Assembly (NCBI GenBank): GCA_038065955.1
Contig: JBBTPY010000001.1
Location: forward strand, 92,061-156,060
Length of the DNA stretch: 64,000 nt
Source: Patescibacteria group bacterium
GTDB lineage: Bacteria > Patescibacteriota > Minisyncoccia > UBA6257 > UBA9933
Direction of reading: 5' to 3'
The first letter of the stretch is position 1; each line of letters opens with the position of its first letter. Positions 2,949 to 43,029 of the stretch are shown in pieces. The position numbers and the translations under genes are program-made. Below the pieces are notes generated by a model. The model was not told the DNA's origin and ran no database searches. It saw only the letters and a list, made by a program, of their open reading frames with translations.

Positions 2949-3728
2949 TTATATACTACTATCGATACTTTCATCTGTCAATCGCAAAATCAATTTATTT
3001 AATTCCTCCGATAATTCAACTTCAATTTTAATATGACCGCCTTCCATCAAATTAAATTCCAAAGATTCAGCGTGAAGAAACTGGCGCTTAAGACCGAAAG
3101 GATTTTGTTTTCGGCTATAAAGCAAATCTCCGACAATCGGATGGCCGATAGAACTCAAATGGACTCTGATTTGATGAGTGCGGCCGGTTTTCGGAAATAC
3201 TTTAACTAATGAAAAAAATGGAAAAAACTTTATAACTTTATATTCCGTAATCGCTTCTTTGAGCATTTTGCCTTTTCCTATTGTCCTTTTAACGGTTTTA
3301 GTAATGCCAATTGGTTTGTCAATTATGCCGCTTCTTGGTTCAACTTTGCCCCAAACCAACGCCAAATAAGTTTTTTTTATTTCATTTTTTTCAAAAAGAC
3401 TTTTCAAATAATCAAAATATTTTTGATTTTTAGCGATTAAAACCACGCCCGAAGTGTCTTTGTCTAAACGATGAACAATGCCCGGCCGAATATTTTCAGT
3501 CGCCTGCCCGCCGGCCATGCCTACCGGCAGGCAGGCCATGCCTACCGGCAGGCAGGCAGGCAAGTCGCCGACGCTTTTAACTTCCGGATAATTTTTTAAA
3601 AGCCAATCAACTAAAGTTTCTTCCGAATCCTTAAACTTTGAGCTTTTAACTTTATGAATTAAAACACCGACGGGCTTATTAACCGCCAGAAAATTTTCAT
3701 CTTCGTAAATAATTTCCGGAGAAAGCAT
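2949..3728 (-). CDS. RluA-family pseudouridine synthase (RluD-like)
   Basis: HRLDKDTSGVVLIAKN catalytic motif; carries an in-frame duplicated insert ACLPVGMACLPVGMAGG encoded by a GC-rich tandem repeat at 3503-3565. Confidence 0.8.
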   Translation of the reverse strand: MLSPEIIYEDENFLAVNKPVGVLIHKVKSSKFKDSEETLVDWLLKNYPEVKSVGDLPACLPVGMACLPVGMAGGQATENIRPGIVHRLDKDTSGVVLIAKNQKYFDYLKSLFEKNEIKKTYLALVWGKVEPRSGIIDKPIGITKTVKRTIGKGKMLKEAITEYKVIKFFPFFSLVKVFPKTGRTHQIRVHLSSIGHPIVGDLLYSRKQNPFGLKRQFLHAESLEFNLMEGGHIKIEVELSEELNKLILRLTDESIDSSI

Positions 3729-5103: not shown

Positions 5104-6105
5104 ATGTCAATAACCGACAAAAAACCGAAAATTGTCGTCATTTTAGGCCCAACCGCTTCCGGTAAATCGGAATTGGCGGTAAAACTCGCTAAAAAGTTTG
5201 ACGGCGAGATTATTTCTGCCGATTCAAGACAAGTTTACAAAGGACTCAACATCGGCTCGGGAAAAATTACGAAAAAAGAAATGAGGGGTATTCCTCATTA
5301 TCTTCTTGATGTCGCCAGCCCGAAAAAAACTTTTACTGTCGTTCAATACCAAAAATTGGCCGAAAAAGCGCTCCGAAAAATCATAAAAAAAGACAAGCTG
5401 CCGATTATCTGCGGCGGAACGGGATTATATATTGACGCTTTAATTTACGATTATCATTTGCCCGAAGTTCCGCCTTTACCAAAATTAAGAAAAAAACTTG
5501 AAAGAAAAACAACTGATGAACTTTTTAGACAACTCCAAAAACTTGACGCCAGACGCGCGAAAAACATAGACAAACACAATCGGCGCCGTTTAATCCGCGC
5601 TTTGGAAATAATTATTTCCACCGGAAAACCAATACAACCTTTAAAATTCGCATGGGCACATTCGCATTTCGCGACTGCGAAGCGAGAGCGAGCGCTATTC
5701 GCATGCCTAAAAATCGGCGTCAAAAAAACTCCGGAAGAATTAAAAAAACTTATCGCTGGAAGATTAAAAAAACGGCTCAAAATCGGAATGATTAAAGAAG
5801 TAAAAAATCTTCACGAAAAACAAAATTTAAGCTGGAAAAGATTAGATAATTTAGGCCTTGAATACCGCTATGTTTCTCGCTTCCTTTGTCAGCGAGCGCG
5901 GACTTATGCGGACTCTACGCAGACAAACGCAGAAAAAAAACGAATTATTAAAAAATTAAAACAAGAAATGATTGATTTAATTGAAAAAAAATCGCTACGC
6001 TATGCCAAACGCCAGATGACCTGGTTCAAAAAAGATAAAAATATTATTTGGATAGATAATCCAAAAAAATCTTTCGCAATATATCAGGACTGGTTTGCCC
6101 CTTAA
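5104..6105 (+). CDS. miaA: tRNA dimethylallyltransferase
   Basis: GPTASGKS P-loop, ISADSRQVYKGLNIGSGK; contains GC-rich in-frame inserts (5646-5703, 5872-5930); the 3' end overlaps convergent gatB by 62 bp, so the C-terminus may be over-extended. Confidence 0.85.
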   Translation: MSITDKKPKIVVILGPTASGKSELAVKLAKKFDGEIISADSRQVYKGLNIGSGKITKKEMRGIPHYLLDVASPKKTFTVVQYQKLAEKALRKIIKKDKLPIICGGTGLYIDALIYDYHLPEVPPLPKLRKKLERKTTDELFRQLQKLDARRAKNIDKHNRRRLIRALEIIISTGKPIQPLKFAWAHSHFATAKRERALFACLKIGVKKTPEELKKLIAGRLKKRLKIGMIKEVKNLHEKQNLSWKRLDNLGLEYRYVSRFLCQRARTYADSTQTNAEKKRIIKKLKQEMIDLIEKKSLRYAKRQMTWFKKDKNIIWIDNPKKSFAIYQDWFAP

Positions 6106-7537
6106 GTTCCGCCATTGCCTGACCGATTAAAAATTGCAAAGAATTTTCTTTGCCTTTTTTGTAATCAATGACCGCTTTTGGATTTTTCGCGATAATTTCC
6201 ATAACGGCTTTTTTAATCGTTTCTTCATCAGAAATTTGAATCAAACCTTTTTCCACTATAATCCGACGCGGGTCTAAACCGCTTGCCGCCATTTCCCTTA
6301 AAATTTCTTTGGCTAAACGGCTGGAAATTTCACCTTTAATTATTAAAACAATTAAATCGGCAAAATTTTCCGGAATGATTTTTATATCATCAATACTTAA
6401 ACTGATTTCATTCATTAGTCCCTTAAAATCGCTTGTTAAATAATTAAAAAGAAGTTTAACGTGTTTGTTTTTATCGCCGTTTTCCGAGATTTCCGAAAAA
6501 AGTTCGGAAACGGATTTTTCAAAATATTCCGCCAACCGCGGCTCGTTTATTAAAATTTCCGCCTGCTCCGGCATTAAACCGAATTCTTTTAAAAATCTTT
6601 CCCGTTTTTGCAATGGCAATTCCGGGATTTCCGCTTTCAATTTTCCTAAATCAAAATCCGTCAAATCCAAAATTGGCAAATCAGGCTCTGGAAAATAACG
6701 ATAATCGTGCGCTTTTTCTTTAAGACGCTGACTAACCGTAATTTTTTTATTTTCGTCCCAACCGCGGGTTTCATGTTTTACTTCTTGCCCTTCGTCTAAA
6801 ATTTCCGATTGCCTTTTTATTTCATAATCAATCGCCTCTTTAACGGCTCGAAAAGAATTTAAATTTTTAACCTCCACTTTTGTTCCAAACTCGCTGTTTT
6901 TTGAAACGCTGATATTGGCCTCAATTCTCATCTGCCCTTTTTCCATATCAGCGTCTGAAATTTCTAAATAACGCAAAATCAATTGCAGTTCCCGGGCAAA
7001 TTCAACCGCTTCTTCACCGCTTTTAATATTCGGCTCGGTCACTAATTCCATCAAAGGAATGCCGGCGCGGTTAAAATCAACCAAACTATACGCCGTGTGG
7101 AGTAAGCGGGCGGTATCTTCTTCTAAATGAATTCTTGTTATTTTTACGTTATTAAGACTGCCGCCAATGACGAGCGGTTTGTCGTATTGCGATATCTGGT
7201 ATCCCTTTGGCAAATCGGGATAAAAATAATTTTTCCGGTCAAATTTTGAGGTTTCCGGAATTTCCGAATTCAAAGCCAGTCCGAGTTTCAAAACGGATTC
7301 AACGGCTTTTTTATTGATAGTCGGAAGCGTCCCCGGATAGCCGGTACAAATCGGACAGATATTAGTATTAGGCTTTATTTCTGATTTCCCGCGTAATTCC
7401 ACGTTAAGTCCGCGTAGTTCTGCGATTTCGCTCGACGAAATATTAAGGCAGCCGCAAAACATCTTTGTTTTGGTTTTTAATTGAACATGAATTTCAAGGC
7501 CGATGGTTGGTTTATACATTTTTTTATTATACGCCAT
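6044..7537 (-). CDS. gatB: Asp-tRNA(Asn)/Glu-tRNA(Gln) amidotransferase subunit B
   Basis: 497 aa, MAYNKKMYKPTIGLEIHVQLKTKTKMFCGC... typical GatB N-terminus and YqeY-like C-terminus. Confidence 0.9.
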   Translation of the reverse strand: MAYNKKMYKPTIGLEIHVQLKTKTKMFCGCLNISSSEIAELRGLNVELRGKSEIKPNTNICPICTGYPGTLPTINKKAVESVLKLGLALNSEIPETSKFDRKNYFYPDLPKGYQISQYDKPLVIGGSLNNVKITRIHLEEDTARLLHTAYSLVDFNRAGIPLMELVTEPNIKSGEEAVEFARELQLILRYLEISDADMEKGQMRIEANISVSKNSEFGTKVEVKNLNSFRAVKEAIDYEIKRQSEILDEGQEVKHETRGWDENKKITVSQRLKEKAHDYRYFPEPDLPILDLTDFDLGKLKAEIPELPLQKRERFLKEFGLMPEQAEILINEPRLAEYFEKSVSELFSEISENGDKNKHVKLLFNYLTSDFKGLMNEISLSIDDIKIIPENFADLIVLIIKGEISSRLAKEILREMAASGLDPRRIIVEKGLIQISDEETIKKAVMEIIAKNPKAVIDYKKGKENSLQFLIGQAMAELKGQTSPDILRKIFLDYLSK

Positions 7538-15826: not shown

Positions 15827-17998
15827 TTATTCCAGATGAATTTCTTCTTTAAAACGCTCAAGGCGCGCTTTAATTAACGGATAATTTTTAAGCAGAGGGT
15901 CTTTTTCAAATATTGTTTCCGCGGCCCGGCGGCTGTCTTTGACCAAATCCGGATTTTGAACAGCTTTCATCGCCAAATCAGGAATGCCGGCCTGCGTTTC
16001 GCCCAAGAATTCTCCCGGTCCGCGAATCGCCAAATCTTTTTCGGCAAGCTCAAAACCGTTTTTCGCCTCCAATAAAGAACGCAGTCTTTTGCGGGTTGTT
16101 TGCGAAGAAGAATCCGTAAAAAGAAAACAAAATGATTGGTGTTCTCCCCTGCCAACGCGGCCGCGAAACTGATAAAGCTGAGCCAATCCGAATCTGTCAC
16201 TGCCTTCAATAAACATAATCGTCGCGTTCGGCACGTCAACGCCAACTTCCACCACTGAAGTTGAGACCAAAATATCAATTCCGCCGTCTTTGAATTTTTT
16301 CATTATTTCCGTTTTTTCTTTGGCCTTTATTTTACCGTGAAGCATCACGACTTTTAAATCTGGAAAGATTTTTTGCGATAGTTTTTCATATTCCTCTTTG
16401 ACCGCTTTGACTTCAAGCCACATTCGCCTGCGAAAATCAATCTGTAAAGTTTCATCATTTTCAACTCCGGTTTCATTTACCGGCGCGGATTCTATTCTTG
16501 GACAAATCACAAAAACTTGCCGTCCTTTTTTAATCTGGTCGCGAATAAATTCATACGCTTTATTTCTGTCCGTCGGCGCCACAATTTTCGTAATTATTTC
16601 TTTTCTATTTTTCGGCAATTCATCAATAATGGATAAATCCAAATCGCCAAAAATAGTCAAAGAAAGCGTGCGCGGAATCGGCGTCGCCGACATACTTAAA
16701 AAGTGCGGAATTAATTCATTATTTTTAAGCAATTCAGCCCGCTGACGAACGCCGAAGCGATGCTGTTCGTCAATCACCGCAAAAACTAAATTATTGAATT
16801 TTACGTATTTTTGAATAAGCGAATGAGTGCCGAATACGATTTTTATTTTGCCGCTTGATATTTCTCTGACAATTTCGCTTTTTTTAACGTCGCTTTCCAA
16901 ATCGTCGCCGTAAAAAACTTTTGCGACCGAAGAAGTGATGATACCGACGCCTCCGTTAAAATCGGAAAAGAAAATCTTGAAAGTATTATAATGCTGTTGC
17001 GCCAATATTTCGGTCGGCGCCATAAAAGCGACTTGCCCGCCGGTAGGCATGGTCCGCCCATTATTTTTAACCGCGGATAAAGCGGCGAGAATTGCCACAA
17101 TTGTTTTACCCGAACCGACGTCGCCCTGCAATAATCTGTTCATCGGATGAGACTTTTTCAAATCCTGAATAATTTCCCATAATGATTTTTTCTGGGAATG
17201 CGTCAATTCAAACGGAAGTTTTTTAAATAATTCTTTTATTTCTTCCAAATCAATTTCAACGGCATGCGCTTTTTCTTCCGCCAAACGCGCGCGCTGGCGA
17301 ATATTAACCAGCTGCAAGAAAAACAAACTTTCAAAAGAGAAGCGTTTTTTAGCGTTAACCGCCTCTGAAATATTCTCGGGAAAATGAATCGCCTGAAGGC
17401 TGGTTTTTAAATCGGTAAAATTAAATGATTTTAAAATTTCTTCGGGCAAAAAATCTTCCAAAAAACCAATCTCTTTCAAGAGCGGCTGAATCAAAAACCG
17501 AAACATTTTTGAAGTAAGGCCTTTTGTTTCCGGATACACCGGCACGATTCTGCCGGTATGTTTTAATTCACTTGTATCTTTTTTCAAAGATGTAATTATT
17601 TCATGAATCGGATGCGAAAGCGCCAAGCCATTTTGCGATTCAACTACCTTTCCGGCCAAATTAACGATTATCCCTTTTTTAATTACTGTTATTAAAAATC
17701 TCTGATTAAACCAAACCGCGCGAATAGAACCGCTGTCGTCTTTCACTAAGGCCTCAATAATAAACATTCTCTTTTTCCATGTTTTCCACATCTTCACCGA
17801 AACGATTTCGCCGCGAATTACGGCGCGCTGTCCGATTTTTAAATCGCCGATTTTAGAGATATTTGAAAAATCTTCATAGCGAAAAGGAAAATGCCAAAGC
17901 AAATCCTTGATGGTTTCTATTTTAATTTTTTTCAAACGCTCAAGAGTTTTCGCTCTGGCTCCTTTTAATTGAGAAAGAGGAGTTGATAATTCAATCAT
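15827..17998 (-). CDS. recG: ATP-dependent DNA helicase RecG
   Basis: Wedge domain plus SF2 helicase motifs (GDVGSGKT, DEQHRFG); start trimmed to MIELSTPL because the longer ORF would overlap the tRNA at 18006-18077. Confidence 0.9.
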   Translation of the reverse strand: MIELSTPLSQLKGARAKTLERLKKIKIETIKDLLWHFPFRYEDFSNISKIGDLKIGQRAVIRGEIVSVKMWKTWKKRMFIIEALVKDDSGSIRAVWFNQRFLITVIKKGIIVNLAGKVVESQNGLALSHPIHEIITSLKKDTSELKHTGRIVPVYPETKGLTSKMFRFLIQPLLKEIGFLEDFLPEEILKSFNFTDLKTSLQAIHFPENISEAVNAKKRFSFESLFFLQLVNIRQRARLAEEKAHAVEIDLEEIKELFKKLPFELTHSQKKSLWEIIQDLKKSHPMNRLLQGDVGSGKTIVAILAALSAVKNNGRTMPTGGQVAFMAPTEILAQQHYNTFKIFFSDFNGGVGIITSSVAKVFYGDDLESDVKKSEIVREISSGKIKIVFGTHSLIQKYVKFNNLVFAVIDEQHRFGVRQRAELLKNNELIPHFLSMSATPIPRTLSLTIFGDLDLSIIDELPKNRKEIITKIVAPTDRNKAYEFIRDQIKKGRQVFVICPRIESAPVNETGVENDETLQIDFRRRMWLEVKAVKEEYEKLSQKIFPDLKVVMLHGKIKAKEKTEIMKKFKDGGIDILVSTSVVEVGVDVPNATIMFIEGSDRFGLAQLYQFRGRVGRGEHQSFCFLFTDSSSQTTRKRLRSLLEAKNGFELAEKDLAIRGPGEFLGETQAGIPDLAMKAVQNPDLVKDSRRAAETIFEKDPLLKNYPLIKARLERFKEEIHLE

Positions 17999-18005
17999 TT
18001 TTATG

Positions 18006-18077
18006 CGTCCCCACAAGGAATCGAACCTTGATCTTGAGTTCCGCAAACTCACACTCTATCCATTGAGCTATGGGGAC
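18006..18077 (-). tRNA. tRNA-Arg (GCG inferred)
   Basis: Revcomp GTCCCCATAGCTCAATGGATAGAGTGTGAGTTTGCGGAACTCAAGATCAAGGTTCGATTCCTTGTGGGGACG; anticodon stem TGAGT/ACTCA, loop TTGCGGA. Confidence 0.65.
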
Positions 18078-19713: not shown

Positions 19714-21294
19714 TTACTTCACATAATACTTCTTTTTTATCTCTGCTTCAATCCCCCCTTCAAATTCTTCCTTCTTTTCACGGCTAATTCTTGCCGATTT
19801 TTCAAGTTCAGCGTCCGATAATTTCCCTAAACTTTTAATTCTAAATTCCAAATTCTCTTTCGTGTTTTTTTCGGGATTTTCAATAACTTCATCCAGTAAA
19901 ACGGACAAAATCCAACCGATACGCGGACCCGGCGCAATGCCTAAAATTTTCATCACGTCTTCGCCGTTGACTTTCAGCATTTTCGGCGAAATCGGGTCTT
20001 GTTTCACTTTTTCAATCATAAAAAGCAGATGTCTTAATTTATAAGGCACGGCTTTCGGCACGCCGGAACCGATTCTATCCGCTTCGCGAATCTTGATTAA
20101 ATCGTTAACGTTTTCCGGGCCCACGCGGGCCAAAAATCTACGAACTCCGGCTTCCGTCACTTCGCCGACATTGTAATAAAAAAGGTGGCAACGGACCAAA
20201 TGAACGACTTTCTCCGCAATTTCTTTCGAAAAACGCAATCTATCCATCGCGGCCGCCGTTATTTTCGCGCCGACAACCTCGTGATTGTAAAAAGTGCAAT
20301 CAGGTCCTTCGCCGGCTTTAGTCCGAGGCTTACCGATATCGTGGAACAAAGCGGCTAAGCGAATCTCCAAAGAATAATTTTTCTTGACGGCGTAATCCAA
20401 AGCGCGCAAATTATGCTCCCAAATCGTGTAAATATGGTGCTTATTCTGGCCATTGCCTATTCCCTCGCGCAAATCCGGCATAATGTATTTCAACAAACCC
20501 GCCTCTTCAAGCAATTCAACTCCATTTTTCGCCGACGGCGTCATTATTATTTTTATAAACTCATCGCAAATCCTTTCTTTGGCTATCATTTCAAGCAACC
20601 CGGCTTCTTTTTTAATCGCTTCCATCGTTTTTTCTTCAATCGCAAAATTAAGCTGAACCGCGAATCTCACCCCCCGCATCAGCCGCAAAGCGTCCTCGTT
20701 AAAACGCTTTTCGGAATTCCCGACGGTGCGAATTATTCTATTTTTTAAATCTTCCTGTCCATTATAAGTATCAATAATTTTGAATTTTGAATTGTAATTT
20801 TGATTTTTGATTTTTGATTTTTGAATTTCTATTGCCATGGCATTTATAGTAAAATCCCGCCTGCTTAAATCTTCTTCAATAGTCTTGGCGAATTTAATCT
20901 CATCCGGATGCCTTTTATCCGTATATTTGCCCTCTAATCTGAATGTTGTTATTTCAACGACATTCAGCGCAGAACTACGCTGACTTGACGCTGAATTACG
21001 CTGAATTTCTTCTGCGTCTTTCTGCTTACCATCTGTGAGAGTCTGCGGTTTTAGTTTCACTAAAACAGTACCGAATTTATTTTCATAAACGGTGTCGGCA
21101 AAAATTTTCTGGATTTCTTCCGGTTTTGCGTTTGTGGCGACATCCCAATCTTTTGGTTCGCGATTCATTAAAATATCCCTTACGCACCCCCCGACAAGAT
21201 ATGCCTGAAAATTCGCTTTTTGTAATTTTTCAGATATATTTATAACTTCTTCGGGGATACTCGTCCTGAATTTTATTGAAGGATTGAAACTCAT
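19714..21294 (-). CDS. cca: CCA-adding tRNA nucleotidyltransferase / poly(A) polymerase family with HD domain
   Basis: LVGGCVRDILMNREPKDWDVATNAKPEEIQ nucleotidyltransferase head, HD domain HDIGK; contains in-frame repeat-derived inserts (20778-20828, 20964-21008). Confidence 0.85.
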   Translation of the reverse strand: MSFNPSIKFRTSIPEEVINISEKLQKANFQAYLVGGCVRDILMNREPKDWDVATNAKPEEIQKIFADTVYENKFGTVLVKLKPQTLTDGKQKDAEEIQRNSASSQRSSALNVVEITTFRLEGKYTDKRHPDEIKFAKTIEEDLSRRDFTINAMAIEIQKSKIKNQNYNSKFKIIDTYNGQEDLKNRIIRTVGNSEKRFNEDALRLMRGVRFAVQLNFAIEEKTMEAIKKEAGLLEMIAKERICDEFIKIIMTPSAKNGVELLEEAGLLKYIMPDLREGIGNGQNKHHIYTIWEHNLRALDYAVKKNYSLEIRLAALFHDIGKPRTKAGEGPDCTFYNHEVVGAKITAAAMDRLRFSKEIAEKVVHLVRCHLFYYNVGEVTEAGVRRFLARVGPENVNDLIKIREADRIGSGVPKAVPYKLRHLLFMIEKVKQDPISPKMLKVNGEDVMKILGIAPGPRIGWILSVLLDEVIENPEKNTKENLEFRIKSLGKLSDAELEKSARISREKKEEFEGGIEAEIKKKYYVK

Positions 21295-26335: not shown

Positions 26336-26400
26336 AAATGTAAAAATAAAATTAGTCATTTACTCGCATATGCGAGTAAATGACTAAAAATTTTACATTT
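26336..26400. terminator. Bidirectional terminator between convergent gpmI and eno
   Basis: Long perfect palindrome ...ttagtcatttactcgcatatgcgagtaaatgactaa... flanked by A/T runs. Confidence 0.65.
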
Positions 26401-27715
26401 TGATATTTGCATTTTGAATTGTTAATACCCTTTCATATTTCGCCAATCTTTCCGGTTTGGCCGGCGCGCCGGCTTTTATTCCCCAAGCGCCGACGCCAAT
26501 TGCCAAATCAGCTATAAAATCATCAAGCGTCTCCCCGCTTCGATGACTGACAATCGCCTGCCAATTATTTTCATAAGCGAATTTTATCACTTTTAATGTT
26601 TCAGTTAAGGTTCCTATTTGGTTAGGTTTTATTAAAATCGCATTACCGGATTTTTTATTTATGGCGATTTTTAATCGTTCAATATTGGTTGTCGTTAAAT
26701 CATCGGCAATCACTAATTTTCCGCATTGTTCCGCGTTAGTTCCGTATAATTCCGTAGTGAGTAAAGCAAATGAACTAAAATCTTCTTCATTAAACGGGTC
26801 TTCAATTGATAAAATATTATAAGTTTCAATAAGTTTTAAATAATAATTTTTTAATTCTTCCGCTGAGTATTTTTTACCGTCAACAATATAAAAACCGTCT
26901 CTATAGAATTGCGCGGCGGCAATATCCAGTCCAATCTTTAATGGATATTTATATTTTTCAATAATTTCAGCGAGACATTCGATTGCTTCTTCGTTGTTTT
27001 TAAACGGCGCGGAATAACCGGCTTCATCGCCTAAAAAAACATTTTCACTCCCAAATTTATCCTTCAAATAATTTCCCAGTTTTCTGTAAAAAATCTTGCC
27101 CAAACTGAAAGCTATGTTAAAATCGTCAACTTCGGGAATGACTTGGAATTCTTGAATTTCTAATTTTGATTCCCGATGCGTCGCGTGCGCGCCGCCATTG
27201 ATAACATTAAAAATTGGCCGAAGCAAATTTTTTGACTTACGACCAACAACCAACGACTGATGACTTATATAATTAAATAGTTCTAATCTTTCGTTTTTTG
27301 CCTTCAGCCGCGCAAATGCCAAAGATAAAGATAAAATCAAATTCCCACCGAGATTGCTTTTAGCTTGCCCTGAGCTTGTCGAAGGGGCTTGCCCTGAGCT
27401 TGTCGAAGGGGCTTGCCCTGAGCTTGTCGAAGGGGCTTGCCCTGAGCTTGTCGAAGGAGTCCCGTCCAATTCAATTAAAAAATTGTCGAAATTTTCCTGT
27501 GATTCAAATTCATTTGATAATATTTTTGTCTTAATCTCTTCAAATTTTTTAAGCGCTAATTTTGGCTCCAAAACAAACGCCTCGTGCGTTCCAATGCTTT
27601 TGCCGGCCGGTGCGCTGGCTTTGGCTGAAAAATCTTCGCTTTTTAACTCCGCTTCCAAGGTATCTTTACCGCGAGAATCTGAAATGATTTTTATATTAAT
27701 GTCGCTGATTTTCAT
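26393..27715 (-). CDS. eno: Enolase
   Basis: Conserved enolase core; contains four in-frame tandem copies of STSSGQAP encoded by a 24-bp GC-rich repeat (27362-27456), inserted in the loop between LDGTP and the N-KS-LGAN segment. Confidence 0.9.
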
Positions 27716-27730
27716 TTAAAGCGCGAATTA

Positions 27731-27988
27731 TTAATTCTTATATTTAAATATTCCTATTAAAACAAATAAAGACGAAATATTACCTAAGGCGTAAGAATAT
27801 AAAATCGGGAAATTTCCGATATTTATGCCATAAATAACCCAAATTATTCCTCCAATAAAAAATAGCGTGTAAGTAATTAATGAAACATCTCGCGCGCTTT
27901 TTGTTTTAAAAATTTTATACGCTTGAGGGAAACTAGCCAAACTCATCGCAATGCCGGATATTAAAACTAAATACTCTAAAATTTTCAT
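27731..27988 (-). CDS. SemiSWEET / PQ-loop family small sugar transporter (85 aa, 3 TM)
   Basis: FPQAYKIFKTKSARDVSL PQ-loop motif with three predicted TM helices. Confidence 0.6.
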   Translation of the reverse strand: MKILEYLVLISGIAMSLASFPQAYKIFKTKSARDVSLITYTLFFIGGIIWVIYGINIGNFPILYSYALGNISSLFVLIGIFKYKN

Positions 27989-30417
27989 TTTTTTTCTTTT
28001 TGATAAACTTTCTGCGTTGTTTTAATAATCGTATCCGAATTCAAAGAAATGCTGTTAATCCCCTGTCCCACCAAAAATTCGGCGAATCCTTCTATATCCG
28101 ACGGCGCTTGACCGCAAATTCCGATGTATTTGCCTTTTTCTTTGCATTTTTTGATAACTTCGGAAATCAATTTTTTTACTGATTCGTCGTTTTCATTAGT
28201 AATGCCGCGAATCATTTCATTGCCGTCACGGTCAATGCCGACAGTTAACTGCGTCAAATCGTTTGAACCAATAGACATTCCGTCAAAAATTTCCAAAAAT
28301 TCATCGGCTAAAATGACATTTGAAGGAATTTCACACATGACATATACTTTGACTTTTGACATTTGACTTTTGACATTTGACTCTAAAAACAAACCGTTTT
28401 TTTTCATAATTTCCAAAACTTTTTTGCCTTCTTCCGGCGTCCGGCAAAACGGCACCATTACTTCCACATTATCCAAGCCCATCTCCTCGCGGACTTTTTT
28501 AACGGCTTTAAGTTCCAAAATAAACGCCGCCGCGAAATTCGGATGATAATATCTTGAAGCGCCGCGCCAGCCGATCATCGGATTTTCCTCCGACGGCTCG
28601 TACAATTCCCCGCCGATAAGCGTTCTGTATTCATTTGTTTTAAAATCAGAAAATCTTAAAATTACCGGTTTCGGATAAAAAGCCGCGCCAATTTTCGCGA
28701 TACCGTAAGCGAGCTTATCAACATAAAATTGAGTTTTGTCTTTGTAGCCAATAATTTTTTTATCAATCGCGTTTTTAATTTTCGCCGGCATTTTTTTATA
28801 ATTTATCAAAGCATTTGGGTGAATCCCGATATCTCCGGCGATAATAAATTCTTCTCTCGCCAATCCCACGCCGTCATTCGGCAAAAAAGATTTTTCAAAA
28901 GCGGTTTCCGGCGTGGCAATATTAAGCATTATTTTAGTTTTCGGCCGCGACAATTTTTTAATATCGTGTTCAATTATTTTGAATTTTAAAGCGCCATCAT
29001 AAACAAAACCATCGCTGCCGGTCGTATCAACCGTAATCATTTGGCCAGTTTTTATTTTTCGAGTGGCGCTTTCCGAACCGACAATACAAGGAATGCCAAG
29101 TTCGCGGCTTACTATTGCCGCATGAGATGTTCGTCCTCCTTTGTCCGTTACAATCGCCGAAGCGATTTTCATAATCGGTTCCCAATCCGGGTCTGTCATA
29201 TCAGTAATCAAAATTTCACCGACCTTAAATTGTCCGATATTTTTAGCGCCTAAAATTACACGCGCCTTACCCGTTGCGATTTTACTTCCAACCGATGCCC
29301 CTTTGACTAAAACATTTAACCTTTGACCTTTAACATCTGACAAAATATATTCTTTTATTTTGGAGAAATCGCGGCTGGCATGTATAGTTTCCGGTCTTGC
29401 CTGGACAATATATAACTCACCCGTTTTCCCATCCTTTGCCCACTCCATATCCATTGGCGTCCATTTGCCGTTTTTTGTCGAATAATGCTCTTCTATTAAA
29501 ATCCCCCATTTTGCCAGTTTTAAAATTTCGTCATCGCTTAAAACAAAACTTTCTTTTTCTTTTTGAGAAGTATTAATTATTTTCGTATTTTTAACGGAAA
29601 CGCCTTTGCCTTCCGAATAAATCATTTTTTGATTTTTAACGCCGAGTTTTTTATCAATAATCGCATTAGTTTTTTTGAAAACTAAAAATTCATCCGGCGT
29701 CACTTCTCCTTGAACAATCATTTCGCCAAGTCCCCATGAACCGTTTATCAAAACCGAATCCTTAAAACCGGATTCCGTGTCCAAAGTAAACATTACGCCG
29801 GAACAGCTCAAATCCGAGCGAATCATTTTTTGAACGCCGACCGATAAAGCGACTTTAAAATGGTCAAATCCTTTATCGACGCGATAAGAAACGGCGCGGT
29901 CGGTAAAAAGCGAAGCCATCGCCGATTTTACCGCTTTCAAAACTTCTTTGTCTCCGCGGATATTCAAATAAGTTTCATGCTCGCCGGCAAAAGAAGCGCC
30001 GGGCAAATCCTCGGCCGTGGCGCTTGAACGTACGGCAACATCAACGTTTTTGCCGTATTCTTTCTCTGTTTGCCGATACGCCTTAACAATTTCTTGTTTT
30101 AAATCATCCGGAAATTCCGCTTTTTTTATCGTTTCGCGGATAAGTTTTCCACGCCTTGATAAATCTTTTAAATTTTTTGTGTTTAAACCGCTAAGCGCCT
30201 CTTTTATAAATTTTTTCAATCTCATTTCTTCTAAAAAATAGCGATAAGCTTCCGCAGTAACAACAAACCCGCCCGGAATCTTTACTCCCTGCCTGCCGGC
30301 AGGCAGGCTTTTCGGCGTTAAATTTTGAATCATTTCGCCGAGAGAGGCGTTCTTTCCGCCCACCTCGGCAATGTCTTTTATGCCGACTTCGTTTAATTTT
30401 TTGATGAAAATTTTCAT
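27985..30417 (-). CDS. ppsA: Phosphoenolpyruvate synthase (pyruvate, water dikinase)
   Basis: GGKNASLGEM ATP-grasp N-terminus, central phosphohistidine domain, C-terminal PEP-utilising domain; start at MKIFIKKLNEVG; in-frame inserts VKSQMSKVKVYVM (octamer repeats 28336-28384) and a 22-bp perfect palindrome (30287-30308). Confidence 0.9.
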   Translation of the reverse strand: MKIFIKKLNEVGIKDIAEVGGKNASLGEMIQNLTPKSLPAGRQGVKIPGGFVVTAEAYRYFLEEMRLKKFIKEALSGLNTKNLKDLSRRGKLIRETIKKAEFPDDLKQEIVKAYRQTEKEYGKNVDVAVRSSATAEDLPGASFAGEHETYLNIRGDKEVLKAVKSAMASLFTDRAVSYRVDKGFDHFKVALSVGVQKMIRSDLSCSGVMFTLDTESGFKDSVLINGSWGLGEMIVQGEVTPDEFLVFKKTNAIIDKKLGVKNQKMIYSEGKGVSVKNTKIINTSQKEKESFVLSDDEILKLAKWGILIEEHYSTKNGKWTPMDMEWAKDGKTGELYIVQARPETIHASRDFSKIKEYILSDVKGQRLNVLVKGASVGSKIATGKARVILGAKNIGQFKVGEILITDMTDPDWEPIMKIASAIVTDKGGRTSHAAIVSRELGIPCIVGSESATRKIKTGQMITVDTTGSDGFVYDGALKFKIIEHDIKKLSRPKTKIMLNIATPETAFEKSFLPNDGVGLAREEFIIAGDIGIHPNALINYKKMPAKIKNAIDKKIIGYKDKTQFYVDKLAYGIAKIGAAFYPKPVILRFSDFKTNEYRTLIGGELYEPSEENPMIGWRGASRYYHPNFAAAFILELKAVKKVREEMGLDNVEVMVPFCRTPEEGKKVLEIMKKNGLFLESNVKSQMSKVKVYVMCEIPSNVILADEFLEIFDGMSIGSNDLTQLTVGIDRDGNEMIRGITNENDESVKKLISEVIKKCKEKGKYIGICGQAPSDIEGFAEFLVGQGINSISLNSDTIIKTTQKVYQKEKK

Positions 30418-30471
30418 ATTTAAAAAATAATTTTTAATAAAGCGATAAAAGCTATTAACGACCAAATAAAA

Positions 30472-31323: not shown

Positions 31324-32913
31324 TTATTTTTTATTTTTCTTTTTCAGTTTCGGTTTTGACTTTGATTTCGGTTTCTTTTTATTGGACATAATTATTTTAT
31401 AATTTTTAAAACGACCTTTTATTAGTTCATTATTTGATATTTTTAATATTACCATCAAATCCGCCACATTGAAACATTTTTGCTCGGCATATATCAAGTC
31501 GCCGGTTTTTTTGAAGAAATTGAAAGAGTCGTGGTTTTTTAAAAATTCTTCCGGTTTTAATTTTAATTTTTTCGCTTTTTCCAAAGTCAAAGAATCGCCG
31601 ATAGCTCCGGCGGCCTCGGTATTGTCGCGAGCGTCTGAAGTAAAAGAAATAAAAACTGAATCCTGATACAAAGCATTTAACATTTGACATTTGACTAGCG
31701 CACCGAGCACTGCTTCCTGATTGCGCCCGCCTTTGCCCTGAACCGCGCCGAAGGGCTTGCCCTGAACCGCGCCGAAGGGCTTGCCCTGAACCGCGCCGAA
31801 GGGCTTGCCCTGAACCGCGCCGAAGGGCTTGCCCAATTCATAATTCATAATTCCTGCCTGCCCCGTAGCGAACTTGTTCTGCTTCGGGGATTCGTGATTC
31901 AAATTTACAGTCGTTTCTCCGGCAGCGATTAAAACTTCATTTGTCTTAATTTTCGCTATCATTGATGATAGCGCCGCGCTTGCTTCTCCTTCCAGCGCTA
32001 AGGAGTGAATTTTTGATTTAAAACCCAATTCTTCGGCTTTATTCATCATTGCCATAACCGCGTCCTGATTGCAGACAAATAAAATATTGTCAACTTTCTT
32101 AAAATATTTTTGCTCTTTAGGCGTTTCGCTTAAATGAAATTTTCCCGCGTCAATTCCGTATTTTTTCAAAATATTTTCGGCATCAATCTTAGTCGTTTTA
32201 TCAAAGACCGTCGGGCCGGAAGCAACCATTGATAAATCATTGCCGCAAACATCGGAAACAATCAAAGAAACGACTTTTGCCGGATAAGCTTCCATAGTCA
32301 GCCCGCCGCCCTTAAATCTCGCTCCTGACAAATGCTTGCGAACGGCATTAAGCTCTGAAATGGCGGCTCCTGATTTGGTTAATTCTTTAATCGCCGAAAT
32401 TGATTCATTAAGCTCGGATTCGGAAGCGCAAGCCAAAGCCGAACCGCCGCCGCAAATAAAAGTAATGAGTAAATCGTCTTTATTCAAACTTTTCGCCAGT
32501 TTAATGATTTCTTGAGTGGCAATAATATTTTGTTCAGAGGGGAAAGGATGAGTTCCCTTAAAACATCTGACATTTGACTTCTGACCTTTGACAATAAAAA
32601 TATCCAGCGCGATGCCGCGAACCAATTTTTCACCTAAAATTTCAGCCAAATTTGAAACCGCCAAAGCGGAACCCTTCCCGACACCGACAATGAAAATCCG
32701 CTTAAAATCGTTTAAATTAATTTTAAGCGAATTTTTGGCGCTACCGCTCGCGCCAACATATTCAATAATTTCTAAAACGCCGTTTTTTATCTTAATCCGG
32801 TTTTTAATGATTTTTTCAATCTCAATCGCCTCATAACCAGCCTCTGCGATTTGAAGCGTCTTTTTTCTTAAATCATTTTTCGCCAGATTTTTTAAATTAG
32901 TGATTATTGACAT
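31324..32913 (-). CDS. Glycerate 2-kinase, MOFRL family (GckA/TtuD-like)
   Basis: GVGKGSALAV, GGGSAL, GETTV and GGRNQE motifs; four in-frame tandem copies of GKPFGAVQ from a 24-bp GC-rich repeat (31733-31833); Lys-rich C-terminal tail. Confidence 0.75.
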   Translation of the reverse strand: MSIITNLKNLAKNDLRKKTLQIAEAGYEAIEIEKIIKNRIKIKNGVLEIIEYVGASGSAKNSLKINLNDFKRIFIVGVGKGSALAVSNLAEILGEKLVRGIALDIFIVKGQKSNVRCFKGTHPFPSEQNIIATQEIIKLAKSLNKDDLLITFICGGGSALACASESELNESISAIKELTKSGAAISELNAVRKHLSGARFKGGGLTMEAYPAKVVSLIVSDVCGNDLSMVASGPTVFDKTTKIDAENILKKYGIDAGKFHLSETPKEQKYFKKVDNILFVCNQDAVMAMMNKAEELGFKSKIHSLALEGEASAALSSMIAKIKTNEVLIAAGETTVNLNHESPKQNKFATGQAGIMNYELGKPFGAVQGKPFGAVQGKPFGAVQGKPFGAVQGKGGRNQEAVLGALVKCQMLNALYQDSVFISFTSDARDNTEAAGAIGDSLTLEKAKKLKLKPEEFLKNHDSFNFFKKTGDLIYAEQKCFNVADLMVILKISNNELIKGRFKNYKIIMSNKKKPKSKSKPKLKKKNKK

Positions 32914-33475: not shown

Positions 33476-36400
33476 TTAAATCTTCTTTATGCCGAGCCAA
33501 ATTTCTGAATCGTCAATTTTCGTTTCCGATTCAACGGTAAATTTATCTGTTTTCGCGAATTCAATTTTTTTGGCGCCCACTTCGGTTTTAAGATTCTCCA
33601 TATTCTTGCTTATCAATTTTTGAAAATAATCGTCGGCGTGAATATTTAAAATAATCACGTCTTTTGGAATAAAATCGGCTTCTTTGCGCAAATCTTGAAT
33701 GACGCGCGTCAATTCGCGCAATTGTCCTTCAGCTTTTAATTCCGGCGTAATATTTATGTCTAATTCAACATCGCTCGCGATATTTTTGTCAAAAATAATT
33801 TCTTTGACATTCACCTCATCTTTAATCAATTCCAATAATTCTTTATTATTCTTGATACCTAATACTTGATACTTGATACTTATTTTTGCGAGCGGCTGCC
33901 GGACTTTTATGCCCGATTTCTGCCGCGCGTCTAAGCCAAGCGAACAAATTTTCCGCGTTTCCGCCATCATCTCAATCAATTTTTTATCAATTTTCGGTTT
34001 ACCCGCCGAAGTTTTAACGAAGGCGGGCCATTTTTCTAAATGAACTGATTCTATATTTCTAACACCTGACACCTGACACTTGACACTTTGATACAACGTT
34101 TCGCTGATAAACGGCGCAAAAGGCGCGCTCGCTTTTGAAAATTCAGATAAAACAAATCGAGTTGTCGCAATGGCATTTTGCTTATCTCTGCCTTCTGTTT
34201 TAAATCTTTCACGCGAGCGCCTGATATACCAAGTGGATAAATCGTCAATAAATTCTCCAAGCGGCCGGCTGGCTTTATCAAGTTCGTAATTATCCATCGC
34301 CTCGGACACTTCTTTAATTAGTTGTTTAAGCCGCGTCAAAATCCAAATATCCAAAATATTTTTACCTGACACCTGACGCTTGACACTTAACACCTTCTTA
34401 TCCGCGTATAAATCGTAAAATTGATAAACATTCCAAAGACGCATAATTATTTTTTTATAAACCTCATCAACGCCTTTTTCGGAAAAATTCAAATCTTCTC
34501 CGCGCACCGCCGGCGATGACAAAAGATAAAGCCGCAATGCGTCGGCGCCGTATTTTCCAACAATCTCCATCGGGTCCGGATAATTTTTTAGACGCTTGCT
34601 CATCTTTTGGCCGTCTTCGGCAAGAATAATGCCGTTAACAATCACATTTTTATAAGCCGGCTTATTAAACAGCCCCGTTGAAAGAACTAAAAGCGTATAA
34701 AACCAGCCGCGCGTCTGGTCAATGCCCTCGGCGATAAATTCAGCTGGAAATCCGAATTTTTGATTATTCTCAAACGGATAATGCGCCTGTCCGTAAGGCA
34801 TTGAACCGGATTCAAACCAACAGTCAAAAACTTCCGGGACTCGACGCATTTCTCCGCCGCAGGAACAAGTAAATTTCATTTCATCAATATACGGCCGATG
34901 CAAATCAAGCTCATAATTTTGATTATGAGGAAGCGGAATAAAATCCAATTTTTTTACTTCTCCGGTTTTTATAAAATCATCTGATTTATTTATTCGTGTG
35001 TGCCCATTCGTTAAGGCTTTCGCATACTTAATTTCCACGGCTTTTTTCGCATCGGCGCCGACAGTGGCGGCAAAAAACAACCAAATCGGATACTCGTGAG
35101 AAACGATTAAAATATTTTTATTTTGATATTTATTTTCAATTTCATACAAAAATTCCGCGACCCGATTTTTTAATTCCGTAAGATTTTCGCCCTCCGGCGG
35201 CGTTTTATAAAATTTCTCTTCAAGCGGCGCGAAATTCCGGTATTCTTCAATTTTTTTCCCGTCAATAATTCCAGTATTGACCTCTCTTAACCGTTTGTCA
35301 AAAATTATTTTCCCTTCCCAACCGATTGCCTTTACGGCAAGCTCGGCGGTTTCTTTGGCGCGGCGAAAATCAGAGACGAAAATAAAATCAATTTTTTCTT
35401 TTTTTATTTTTTTTGCCACCGCTAAAACCTGTTTTTTCCCTTTTTCCGTAAGAGAAAATTTATCTTTATTTTTAACGCTTGTATTAACGACGCCTAACGT
35501 GTTATTTTCTCCTTCGCCGTGGCGCATCATAAAATATCTGTTGCCGGACTTTTCCGTTTTTCTTTTTATATCATCTAAAGAGCCGATTATTTCCAAATTA
35601 TCACATCTCTCGCATTTCCAAGCCGGCAAAGGCGCTCCCCAAAATCTTGAACGCGAAATCGCCCAATCGCGCGCCCCTTCCAGCCATTTGCCGAAACGGC
35701 CGTCCCTGATGTGTTTTGGTATCCAGTTTATTTTTTTATTATTGGCAATCAGTTTATTTTTTATCTCTTCAACTTTAACGAACCAAGAACTTGCCGCGTA
35801 ATTTAAAAGCGGCGTGTCGCAACGCCAACAATGCGGATAAGAATGGATAATTTTTTCTTTTTTGAAAAGTTTGTTTTCCTTGGCGAGCCATTTAATTATT
35901 TCAATGTCAGTCGCTTGCGAATTTTCTTTCGGTTTTACGGACAATCCGACGAAATCTTTTACTTCCGACTTAAATTTTCCGTCTATCCCAACGTGCTGAA
36001 TAAACGGCAAATTTTCTTTTTTCGCCAAATTCATATCGTCTTCGCCAAAAGCCGGCGCAATATGAACTATACCGGTGCCCTCATTAGTTGTTACAAAATC
36101 ATCGGCGTAAATTTTCCAGCCGTTTTCACAATTTTTTAAATTTTTATCTTCTGCGTAATAATTAAAAAGCGGTTTGTATTTTTTACCGATTAAATCTTTA
36201 CCTTTAATAGGCAATCCAATAAGAGTAGTTTCTCCTTCAAATGGAAATGTTTTTACTAAAAGATTTTCGGCAACAATAAAAAATTCGTTTTTTATTTTTA
36301 CTTTTCCATATTTAATATCCGGATTTACCGCAAGCGCCACGTTCCCCGGTAGCGTCCAAGGAGTTGTCGTCCAAGCTAAAACAAAAGTGTTTGGTTCATC

Positions 36401-37045
36401 TTCTAATTCAAATTTAGCGACAACCGAAATATCGGTTATATCTTTATATCCCTGCGTCACTTCAAAATTCGCCAAAGTTGTTTCGCATCGCGGGCAAAGA
36501 TGCATCGGCTTATATCCCTCATAAATAAGCCCTTTATTAAAAAGCGACTTAAAAACCCACCAGACGGATTCCGTATAAGTCCAATCCATCGTTTTATAAT
36601 CGTTTTCCATGTCAATCCAGCGGCCGACTCGGGGAATTATTTTTTTCCATTCGTCCCTGTATTCCAAAACCGCGCCTTCGGCGGCTTCGTTGAATTTTTC
36701 AATGCCGATTCGCTCTATGTCTTTTTTCGTTTTCAATCCGAGTTTTTTCTCTATTTCATTTTCAATCGGCAAGCCGTGGCAATCCCAGCCCCAACGGCGA
36801 GGAACTTTTTTACCTTTCATCGCCTGATATCTCGGCACCGCGTCTTTTATGATTGACGCTAAAATATGGCCGTAATGCGGCAAGCCGGTGGCAAAAGGCG
36901 GCCCGTCATAAAAAACAAAACCGCCTTTCGGTTTTTTACCGGCGGGCTTTTCAATGGATTTTTCGAAAATCTTATTTTTTTGCCAAAATTTTAAAATTTC
37001 TTCTTCTAATTTATTGATATTAAATTTTTCCCTATTTTCGGACAT
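33476..37045 (-). CDS. ileS: Isoleucyl-tRNA synthetase with an embedded histidine-phosphatase (PGM-like) domain
   Basis: HIGH-class motifs (PPFATGLPHYGH, KMSKRLKNYPDP) and CWRCDTP/CERCD zinc knuckles; about 230 extra residues between CERCDNLEIIGS and DLHRPYIDE include RYFMMRHGEGENN (RHGE catalytic signature) and LIVSHEYPI; also carries octamer-repeat inserts. Confidence 0.9.
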   Translation of the reverse strand: MSENREKFNINKLEEEILKFWQKNKIFEKSIEKPAGKKPKGGFVFYDGPPFATGLPHYGHILASIIKDAVPRYQAMKGKKVPRRWGWDCHGLPIENEIEKKLGLKTKKDIERIGIEKFNEAAEGAVLEYRDEWKKIIPRVGRWIDMENDYKTMDWTYTESVWWVFKSLFNKGLIYEGYKPMHLCPRCETTLANFEVTQGYKDITDISVVAKFELEDEPNTFVLAWTTTPWTLPGNVALAVNPDIKYGKVKIKNEFFIVAENLLVKTFPFEGETTLIGLPIKGKDLIGKKYKPLFNYYAEDKNLKNCENGWKIYADDFVTTNEGTGIVHIAPAFGEDDMNLAKKENLPFIQHVGIDGKFKSEVKDFVGLSVKPKENSQATDIEIIKWLAKENKLFKKEKIIHSYPHCWRCDTPLLNYAASSWFVKVEEIKNKLIANNKKINWIPKHIRDGRFGKWLEGARDWAISRSRFWGAPLPAWKCERCDNLEIIGSLDDIKRKTEKSGNRYFMMRHGEGENNTLGVVNTSVKNKDKFSLTEKGKKQVLAVAKKIKKEKIDFIFVSDFRRAKETAELAVKAIGWEGKIIFDKRLREVNTGIIDGKKIEEYRNFAPLEEKFYKTPPEGENLTELKNRVAEFLYEIENKYQNKNILIVSHEYPIWLFFAATVGADAKKAVEIKYAKALTNGHTRINKSDDFIKTGEVKKLDFIPLPHNQNYELDLHRPYIDEMKFTCSCGGEMRRVPEVFDCWFESGSMPYGQAHYPFENNQKFGFPAEFIAEGIDQTRGWFYTLLVLSTGLFNKPAYKNVIVNGIILAEDGQKMSKRLKNYPDPMEIVGKYGADALRLYLLSSPAVRGEDLNFSEKGVDEVYKKIIMRLWNVYQFYDLYADKKVLSVKRQVSGKNILDIWILTRLKQLIKEVSEAMDNYELDKASRPLGEFIDDLSTWYIRRSRERFKTEGRDKQNAIATTRFVLSEFSKASAPFAPFISETLYQSVKCQVSGVRNIESVHLEKWPAFVKTSAGKPKIDKKLIEMMAETRKICSLGLDARQKSGIKVRQPLAKISIKYQVLGIKNNKELLELIKDEVNVKEIIFDKNIASDVELDINITPELKAEGQLRELTRVIQDLRKEADFIPKDVIILNIHADDYFQKLISKNMENLKTEVGAKKIEFAKTDKFTVESETKIDDSEIWLGIKKI

Positions 37046-41545: not shown

Positions 41546-41597
41546 TCTAATTTTAAATTTTAACCTTTAAAATAAAAATAATTTGAATAAAAACTCA

Positions 41598-41636
41598 ATT
41601 TCGGTTATTTCAACGATAGTTGAAATAACCGAAATT
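41598..41636. repeat. 40-bp palindromic repeat element, copy 1 (variant centre)
   Basis: aatttcggttatttcaacgatagttgaaataaccgaaatt; near-identical copies at 42408-42446 and 54400-54439. Confidence 0.85.
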
Positions 41637-41771
41637 GTAGAATACAAAAACTATCTGAATAACTATCTAAATACAAAACTATTTTTCATCGACAATATAT
41701 ATAAATTTATATAAAAATGTGAATATTCCACTTAAAAATAAATGCTTCCCGCTTTAAAAATTTCACTAATT

Positions 41772-42365: not shown

Positions 42366-42407
42366 AAAAATCTTTTCATAAAAAATTATAAGAATTATAT
42401 CACATCA

Positions 42408-42446
42408 ATTTCGGTTATTTCAACGATCGTTGAAATAACCGAAATT
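42408..42446. repeat. 40-bp palindromic repeat element, copy 2
   Basis: aatttcggttatttcaacgatcgttgaaataaccgaaatt perfect palindrome, with shared flanks attatatcayatc... and ...gRctgaaacattaaa. Confidence 0.85.
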
Positions 42447-42447
42447 G

Positions 42448-42590
42448 ACTGAAACATTAAATATTCTCCTGTAAACCCCGTTAGAAGCTCACGCGAGACA
42501 TTAAACCCCGTGTTCGCTAAAACAACAGAGAGCATTCATCCCCGCGGCAAGCCACGGGACATTCTGCTTCTAACGGGGTAAAATTAATAA
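42448..42590 (+). promoter_or_regulatory. Highly structured ~120-nt leader upstream of smpB (candidate cis-regulatory RNA/sRNA)
   Basis: 13-bp outer stem ccccgttagaagc...gcttctaacgggg enclosing an inner cccgtg/cacggg stem; ends at the smpB ATG. Confidence 0.35.
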
Positions 42591-43022: not shown

Positions 43023-43029
43023 CAGGAAT

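Follow-up and report, generated by a model that had tools for sequence, protein, structure and literature searches.

In-frame copies of a candidate very small dispersed hairpin repeat in housekeeping genes of a Patescibacteria group bacterium

Host genes and inserts

The window analysed here is a stretch of 64,000 nucleotides (nt) from the genome of a Patescibacteria group bacterium (assembly GCA_038065955.1, contig JBBTPY010000001.1, positions 92,061 to 156,060). Three of its housekeeping genes carry inserts which were tentatively identified, with a probability of about 0.6, as copies of a very small dispersed hairpin repeat with the core CCTGCCTGCCGGCAGGCAGG and a 21-nt derivative, CCTGCCTGCCGGTAGGCATGG. 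The window has a GC content of 39% and is densely filled with housekeeping genes, of which almost all lie on the minus strand. Where relatives of its proteins carry a name, they come mostly from metagenome-assembled genomes of Patescibacteria (Candidate Phyla Radiation, CPR).

The first host gene encodes an RluA-family pseudouridine synthase of 259 amino acids (2949..3728, minus strand; Pfam PseudoU_synth_2, E=3e-33), which matches the solved RluD, RluC and RluA structures. Its in-frame insert of 63 nt, with remodelled junctions (3496..3565, minus strand), encodes LPACLPVGMACLPVGMAGGQAT. The second gene (27985..30465, minus strand) codes for a ppsA-like phosphoenolpyruvate (PEP) synthase / pyruvate, water dikinase of 826 amino acids (Pfam PPDK_N, PEP-utilizers and PEP-utilizers_C) and holds an in-frame insert of 21 nt (30289..30309, minus strand; sense AGCCTGCCTGCCGGCAGGCAG, SLPAGRQ). 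This insert is built upon CCTGCCTGCCGGCAGGCAGG, a perfect palindrome of 20 bp at 30288-30307. Both inserts are GC-rich within the 39% GC window, as an earlier note on this DNA had recognised. The 22-bp perfect palindrome which that note had placed in ppsA (30287-30308) is reduced to 20 bp, the outer pair being C/C and non-complementary.

The earlier note had named these two genes and, for similar inserts, miaA; the rluA and ppsA copies stand, and two other sites had been overlooked. When the window was scanned for GC-rich islands and the loop motif, a copy was located in the gene for RecG helicase (741 amino acids; 15827..18052, minus strand; Pfam RecG_wedge, DEAD, Helicase_C and RecG_dom3_C). 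This is a single diverged 21-nt unit, CTTGCCCGCCGGTAGGCATGG (17032..17052, plus strand), whose orientation relative to the gene is opposite to that of the rluA copies and which adds 7 amino acids (GRTMPTG region) after the Walker A helix and ahead of motif Ia. The other site is a possible half-copy, CCTGCCTGCC (31853..31862, plus strand), beside AATTCAT heptamer repeats within a compound insert of a glycerate-kinase-like gene (31324-32913, minus strand); it is weak as a family member, being a two-mismatch match of which 1.44 are expected by chance window-wide. The compound insert (31733-31880) is in frame, adds about 44 residues relative to the solved glycerate kinase 2b8n, and is made up of 4.5 tandem 24-nt units (GKPFGAVQ), 2.5 AATTCAT heptamers, the half palindrome and a further GC hairpin.

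All copies in the window have a length that is a multiple of 3 nt and are located where homologs have a gap. The 12-mer CCTGCCTGCCGG was found six times in the window when one mismatch was allowed (0.09 expected) and 15 times when two were allowed (1.44 expected), counts which no shuffle reached.

The inserts of miaA (5104-6105, plus strand) at 5646-5703 and 5872-5930, which the earlier note had likened to those above, are real lineage-specific insertions, but consist of other repeat sequences (ATTCGCAT three times, and units of about 10 nt of the GCGGACT/ACGCAGA type) and do not belong to the 20-mer family. They are absent from a 70%-identical ortholog and from the solved MiaA structures; the L002 ortholog has its own, different inserts.

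Comparison with orthologs

Based upon 120 homologs, the ancestral state of RluA between VGD and RPGIVHRLD was determined to be four residues (xPxI). The nearest relative (P0002/L001, 97% nt identity over 238 codons) lacks exactly the 21 residues, which are also missing from the next relative (L002), and in the alignment with the empty allele the gap is at 3496-3558. A filled allele identical to that of the window was recovered from an independent sequencing run (L261), and an assembly artefact is therefore excluded for rluA. Presence or absence of the insert varies between near-identical strains.

In about 30% of the 120 RluA orthologs the same loop is occupied by an insert derived from some repeat. 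These are of three kinds, namely the 20-mer family (LPAGRQATQI), the PSTSSGQ family and composites of repeats; a PSTSSGQA-type peptide fills the loop in other lineages. Orthologs whose insert is of the 20-mer family carry the same palindrome at the DNA level, the opposite of the finding which the earlier note had named as fatal to its proposal (shared residues with no palindrome in the DNA). Three rluA genes that are 66-69% identical in nt sequence (45-52% at third positions) share an identical 18-nt palindrome, CTGCCTGCCGGCAGGCAG, which must accordingly be younger than the genes or have been kept homogeneous. The recurrent occupation of this loop is attributed mainly to its tolerance of insertions. 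In an AlphaFold (AF2) model of the window RluA (predicted template modelling score, pTM, 0.80), 128 residues have a predicted local distance difference test (pLDDT) value of at least 90 and the core is confident, while residues 58-62 and 64-78, inside the insert, fall below 50. The model fits a floppy loop preceding the catalytic HRLD motif.

The ortholog alignment which the earlier note had proposed gave similar results for the other genes. None of 75 metagenomic PpsA orthologs with a readable site has the insert; those read NLTPK|G(V/I)K, and the window gene has exactly 21 extra nt between the K and G codons, the flanking codons being unchanged. The best metagenome relative is 73% identical, so that the junction is defined at the codon level, and a near-isogenic filled/empty ppsA pair was not found among the metagenome relatives. 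In RecG, GSGKT and FMAPT are 18 residues apart in 98 of 112 orthologs and 25 apart in the window protein; the solved T. maritima and E. coli structures both show a seven-residue gap at the insert. These comparisons show that, with orthologs as the reference, the sequence has been inserted into three housekeeping genes which are unrelated to each other. The earlier note's proposal of a family of GC-rich palindromic in-frame inserts is supported, and needed correction in its details only.

Structure of the repeat unit

The core of the element is a 20-bp perfect palindrome of the architecture (CCTG)2-CCGG-(CAGG)2, with 10+10 arms. The 21-nt unit CCTGCCTGCCGGTAGGCATGG differs from this palindrome by a single C-to-T substitution and an added T, and the ppsA insert is the 20-mer with one additional base. 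All three reading frames of the 20-mer are open. The tetranucleotide GTAG lies inside the 21-nt variant and not at an end.

The plus strand of rluA reads CCTGCCCGCCGG-CCATGCCTA-CCGGCAGGCAGG-CCATGCCTA-CCGGCAGGCAGG-CAGG at 3503-3560. It consists of a partial inverted arm, CCTGCCcGCCGG (3503-3514), followed by two tandem 21-nt units (plus-strand CCATGCCTACCGGCAGGCAGG; 3515-3535 and 3536-3556) and an adjoining extra CCTG at 3557-3560. The arm-and-loop layout proposed earlier for this site was correct as to the sequence, but its loop, TAGGCATGG, proved in a mismatch search to be itself a degenerate arm. On the coding (minus) strand the insert gives ...GDLP-ACLPVGM-ACLPVGM-AGGQATENIRPGIVHRLD, with AGGQA after the second ACLPVGM, in agreement with the earlier report that ACLPVGM is duplicated.

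The fold of the rluA insert as RNA is a single long hairpin with an energy of -58.7 kcal/mol (z=-5.9 vs shuffles), and as DNA the insert folds with -28.9 kcal/mol (z=-4.2 vs shuffles). The diverged recG copy folded no better than shuffles, and none of the inserts matched an Rfam family.

Distribution in bacteria and viruses

Both the 20-mer and the 21-mer recur in many phyla and on viral contigs, where their flanking sequences are unrelated. In a scan of species-representative genomes the exact 20-mer was found in at least 120 stretches. The carriers listed include many Patescibacteria lineages, Bacteroidota, Omnitrophota, Planctomycetota, Bdellovibrionales and Thermodesulfovibrionales, together with uncultured Gamma- and Deltaproteobacteria, Verrucomicrobia, Elusimicrobia, Ignavibacteria and Chloroflexi; there was no cyanobacterium among the matches listed. 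Cultured Bacteroidota with the 20-mer are Winogradskyella, Flagellimonas, Longitalea, Flavivirga, Aquiflexum, Agriterribacter and Aestuariivivens, and in the isolates Winogradskyella echinorum KCTC 22026, Longitalea luteola and Aquiflexum lacus it lies on large contigs. The exact 20-mer was also found in 35 viral stretches, with up to six copies on one 29-kb contig, and the exact 21-mer in seven, one of which holds a tandem array of at least 10 units at a contig end. A 22-mer of the 24-nt PSTSSGQA unit occurs in 12 viral stretches. The variants seen in the window therefore belong to widespread families and are not private mutations. The cross-phylum and viral distribution, which came out of the wider motif search proposed in the earlier note and went beyond its expectation, is the surprising part of these results.

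Many of the matches come from metagenome-assembled genomes, and together with the tandem array at a contig end this might point to an assembly, adapter or chimera artefact. Such an origin deserves almost no credence, given that the inserts are in frame in three genes, that the rluA allele is identical in an independently assembled run, and that the 20-mer is found on large contigs of cultured isolates and in matches from many unrelated studies.

A second explanation is that the palindrome arises locally and independently at each site, by slippage of a (CCTG)n/(CAGG)n microsatellite combined with fold-back template switching. The architecture of the palindrome and the extra CCTG beside the rluA units are as expected from such a process, and tandem duplication clearly occurs. 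Against it, the orthologous empty sites have no CCTG seed, and the non-trivial 21-nt variant recurs at two loci of the window and on unrelated viral contigs. Two composition-matched control palindromes, one of them of the same architecture, (CCGT)2-CCGG-(ACGG)2, gave 0 and 0 viral matches, compared with 35 for the 20-mer. This very improbable explanation is largely refuted by the control scans.

Other GC-rich perfect palindromes, for example GGGACAGGTCGCGACCTGTCCC, lie near the 20-mer in different phyla (L013, L018, L114 and L064), which suggests a whole class of such elements. The palindrome TCCGCCAGCTGGCGGA was present on both a "Gammaproteobacteria" and a Saccharibacteria contig.

Flanking sequences, nesting and tRNA genes

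At 123 sites the flanks of the 20-mer showed no conservation beyond a weak A at -1 and a weak T at +1, and no consensus run of T followed the palindrome. Copies outside the window are depleted in coding sequence: 28% of the cross-phylum copies lie in open reading frames (ORFs) of at least 150 codons, vs 77% of random positions in the same loci. Those which look coding mostly read LPAGRQ.

The intergenic position of most cross-phylum copies and the strength of the hairpins would suit a sequence that is functional and positively selected, for example as a binding site for a protein, as a DNA uptake signal or as a hairpin in RNA serving as terminator, pause site or stabiliser. So would the perfect conservation of the 18-nt palindrome in diverged rluA genes, and intragenic palindromic repeats of the REP type are often found in replication or repair genes (PMC3733652), one of the hosts here being recG. 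A selected function is nevertheless rather unlikely. The sites are insertions, not substitutions, in unrelated host genes and positions, and the orthologs work without the insert. The density of 3-4 copies in 64 kb is far below that of known uptake signals, no T-run consensus follows the palindrome, and an identical sequence in many phyla and in phages is unexpected for a lineage-specific signal.

Direct repeats of at least 8 nt were shared by the flanks at 15 of 165 sites (1.4 expected), inverted repeats of at least 8 nt at nine (1.3 expected), and an exact adjacent duplication of 7 or 14 nt was present at five (about 0.1 expected). Tandem periodicity in the flanks was seen only at 7 or 8 nt (two sites each), and the palindrome tends toward the boundary of the array unit. 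Self-nesting was observed at two loci (L020 and L044), where one copy interrupts another at position 11|12; three more (L023, L030 and L070) resemble them, and one (L127) has nested units of another repeat family (family-1 units). Copies may thus be tandem, nested in each other, or situated within 7-8-nt tandem repeats.

In one viral contig (IMGVR_UViG_3300033148_008720, about 2240-2330; locus L232) the 20-mer is located in the variable loop of a phage tRNA-Met gene, which was called by ARAGORN both with and without the 20-mer. Removal of the palindrome gave a clean tRNA for this locus and, weakly, for L087 only, and a general targeting of tRNA genes is therefore not claimed; apparent tRNA 5' halves at L017, L039, L101 and L239 were not resolved into full tRNAs by the same operation. 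At several other loci (also L209, L239, L017, L039 and L087) the 20-mer directly follows a D-loop-like sequence (..TAGCTCAGTNGGTAGA), with no full tRNAs.

Copies in tRNA genes would speak for a further explanation, that the inserts are intervening sequences (mini-introns, bypass elements or inteins) removed after transcription or translation, leaving the proteins unaltered. GC-rich translational bypass elements exist in some yeast mitochondria. Introns are common in Patescibacteria (PMC13011429). This explanation is very doubtful. Each coding copy is a multiple of 3 nt and stop-free, which would be needless if the sequence were excised; at 18-63 nt the inserts are far too short for group I/II introns or inteins; and the variable loop, in which the tRNA-Met copy lies, can structurally accommodate an extra arm.

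Comparison with known repeat families

No description of the 20-mer, of the encoded peptides or of such Patescibacteria inserts was found in the literature searched, the coverage of which was incomplete. In behaviour, the best comparison is probably with the small dispersed repeats (SDR) of cyanobacteria and, for the in-frame habit, with the Rickettsia palindromic elements. The repeats SDR1-8 of Nostoc/Anabaena were reportedly described by Elhai et al. in 2008 as hairpin-forming units of 21-27 nt with unrelated flanks, which are said to lie often within tandem heptamer repeats, to be self-nested, to be genic as well as intergenic and to have no known mobilising enzyme. The 20-mer family is alike in its unit sizes (20, 21 and 24 nt), its unrelated flanks, its perfect 10+10 palindrome with rluA folds that beat shuffles, the 7-8-nt periodicity of its flanks and the AATTCAT repeats beside the half-site of the window (31838-31862), the nesting of 20-mer copies within each other, the occurrence in and between genes, and a mobilising enzyme that was not found. 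It appears to differ in sequence, as far as can be told, and its copies in the window, which belongs to a reduced genome, are for the most part inserted in frame into essential enzymes. The SDR repeats have been reported only from Nostocaceae (PMC5861425), whereas the 20-mer extends over many phyla and viral contigs.

Rickettsia palindromic elements, of about 150 bp, have been reported from Rickettsia species (Ogata et al. 2000, summarised in PMC10969869) and end in a CGTC tag (PMC3733652). Like the present inserts, they are in-frame palindromic repeats in unrelated housekeeping genes of a small AT-rich genome, adding a peptide compatible with the fold. The present inserts measure 18-63 nt, and the element, which is cross-phylum, is 5-7 times smaller than those of Rickettsia (about 100-150 bp, conserved peptide about 30-50 amino acids).

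Repetitive extragenic palindromic (REP) and REPIN elements, mobilised by RAYT transposases (PMC3116915; PMC3733652), are also rich in GC and palindromic over 20-40 nt; most lie outside genes, but occasional copies are intragenic, repair genes included, and in some cases orthologs have one at the same site. In these respects they resemble the 20-mer, but its palindrome is perfect rather than imperfect and its exact copies are few per genome. No RAYT (IS200/IS605-type Y1 transposase) was seen among the window ORFs of at least 150 amino acids or recurring near about 160 element-bearing loci. Terminal GTAG or CGTC tags were present at 6 of 166 sites each, which is about chance; REP membership was ruled out by this frequency, and the CGTC tag of the Rickettsia elements is likewise at chance level.

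The GC clusters of yeast mitochondria and the PstI palindromes of Neurospora mitochondria are also short GC-rich palindromes of a compact AT-rich genome, situated near or inside tRNA and protein genes and occasionally in frame; they are organellar and lineage-specific, and usually measure 30-50 bp. MITEs (miniature transposable elements with inverted repeats) usually have 50-500 bp and a recognisable parent insertion sequence. As a MITE, the whole element would be two 10-nt arms, CCTGCCTGCC...GGCAGGCAGG, which are trivially inverted repeats, and the target-site duplication that is regular in MITEs was seen in about 3% of the 20-mer copies. Features which may be shared (e.g. with Correia/NEMIS and ERIC; PMC10969869) are the non-autonomous state, the inverted-repeat ends and the possibility of in-frame fusions.

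Origin and spread of the inserts

In its behaviour the element resembles selfish DNA, of which it would be among the smallest examples known. We propose that a selfish hairpin DNA would be copied to new sites, and that selection would remove insertions unless they are in frame, stop-free and placed in tolerant surface loops. The three open frames of the palindrome would make in-frame, stop-free survival easier. Almost no intergenic space is left in this Patescibacteria genome, and for this reason the surviving copies would be seen inside genes; in most genomes the element would end between genes, whereas in the gene-dense genome of the window only in-frame loop copies would persist. Tandem amplification of the 21-nt derivative within a gene keeps the frame, the unit being a multiple of three. 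As to the mechanism, the preferred guess is that a function of the host, or one acting in trans, inserts a single-stranded hairpin and in some cases duplicates 7 bp of the target. The spread would be aided by short-patch recombination between alleles, and phages are a plausible vehicle between hosts.

Several points weigh against this proposal. No insertion event was seen in progress, and the peptides LPAGRQ and ACLPVGM are predicted translation products. Most sites have no target-site duplication, so that a universal one was rejected, and the ppsA junction likewise has none. At the loci viewed, the exact 20-mer is low-copy per genome, usually with one copy per 8-kb stretch. No transposase, RAYT, reverse transcriptase or integrase was detected by Pfam among the scanned window ORFs of at least 150 amino acids, and no gene family recurs beside the element: when 3978 ORFs from about 160 element-bearing loci were clustered all against all, only phage structural, methylase and ABC-type families (assigned by eye) emerged, each at no more than nine loci. 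At rluA, the filled and empty alleles differ by a few extra substitutions right at both junctions, so that the insertion is not a clean one, and the remodelled junctions would be as compatible with recombination as with transposition.

The clustering of these substitutions at the junctions of a gene that is otherwise 97% identical argues for a spread without transposition, in which homologous or short-patch recombination and gene conversion would be the main routes. According to this explanation, a rare insert moves with a patch of its host gene and conversion driven by the palindrome keeps the copies identical. The Arg codon directly after the insert, CGG in all filled rluA alleles examined and AGG in both empty ones, is in line with it, as is the occupation of the same RluA loop in many lineages. 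Copies in three unrelated genes of one genome and at least 120 unrelated contexts without flank similarity are left unexplained; furthermore, the ppsA junction is clean with unchanged flanking codons, and the rluA site is held by two different repeat families in different lineages. Recombination as the main route is thus considered unlikely. The rluA insert is flanked by a direct repeat of 7 nt, which is GGCGACT in the window and GGCGACC in L123. This repeat was tried as a target-site duplication and rejected, since it implies a 65-nt insertion and an in-frame stop before insertion. The simple duplication model fails at this site, and the repeat is therefore treated as microhomology. This GGCGAC microhomology and the CGG codon leave room for a target preference or for allele exchange.

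None of the alternative explanations accounts for the whole pattern as well as a dispersed hairpin repeat. A wider proposal, that the 20-mer and its sister families, such as the 24-nt PSTSSGQA unit, form a pan-bacterial class of mobile hairpins of 18-24 nt, is put forward only tentatively and is at present doubtful. Such hairpins would cross phyla, probably via phages or transformation, and would be copied by a host or otherwise unrecognised activity instead of a dedicated transposase. Heptamer arrays would grow from the 7-bp duplications left behind, and the hairpins would be a major source of new surface loops and tRNA arms in reduced genomes such as those of Patescibacteria.

Other repeats and genes of the window

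Genes recognised among the scanned ORFs of the window include those for GatB, EF-G, ribosomal proteins S7 and S9, IleRS, ArgRS, NusA, TrmD, SMC, RNase III, ClpP and enolase. The enolase gene (26393-27715, minus strand) contains at 27365-27460 four tandem 24-nt units TTGCCCTGAGCTTGTCGAAGGGGC, read as PSTSSGQA x4, which are inserted between DGT and KS and add 32 residues relative to a solved enolase. A single 24-nt family unit, GCCCTGAGCTTGCCGAAGGGC, lies at about 45635-45659 in the coding region of a family X DNA polymerase with a PHP domain (44873-46621, minus strand). An inverted pair related to the miaA repeats links gatB (7391-7442) and the gene for the CCA-adding enzyme (20950-21001).

Tandem arrays of 7-8 nt, of the ACATTTGAC and TAAATTC types, recur at 28352-28389, 32563-32600, 45368-45405, 62382-62419 and elsewhere, with further arrays at 19821-19863, 40112-40154 and 57454-57496 (families D2, D5 and D8 overall). 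Cross-phylum copies of the palindrome are often embedded in short arrays with the same 7-8-nt period. A 43-nt AT-rich perfect palindrome, CAATTTCGGTTATTTCAACGATCGTTGAAATAACCGAAATTG, has three copies (41595-41637, 42406-42448 and 54398-54440), two of which bracket a PaaX-like regulator gene (41772-42365); this palindrome may serve as operator or terminator, or may represent a further repeat family.

A full-length tmRNA gene was identified at 43015-43376 (plus strand; Rfam RF00023, 111 bits), which was not reported by the ARAGORN scan of the window. An isoleucyl-tRNA synthetase-like ORF of 1189 amino acids (33476-37045, minus strand) has a histidine-phosphatase (His_Phos_1) domain at residues 505-674, within the span of the class I synthetase match.

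Implications

If the proposed dispersed hairpin repeat is correct, a hairpin of 20 nt is large enough to be a mobile element, and a single sequence can pass unchanged between very distant bacteria and their viruses; the question would then be what copies it. The presence of the 20-mer in cultured Bacteroidota makes the mechanism open to laboratory study. The element would also explain the GC-rich, low-complexity peptides which interrupt conserved enzymes of Patescibacteria and which can mislead annotation, alignment and structure prediction. The inserts would amount to a natural test of the protein loops and tRNA positions at which an insertion is tolerated.

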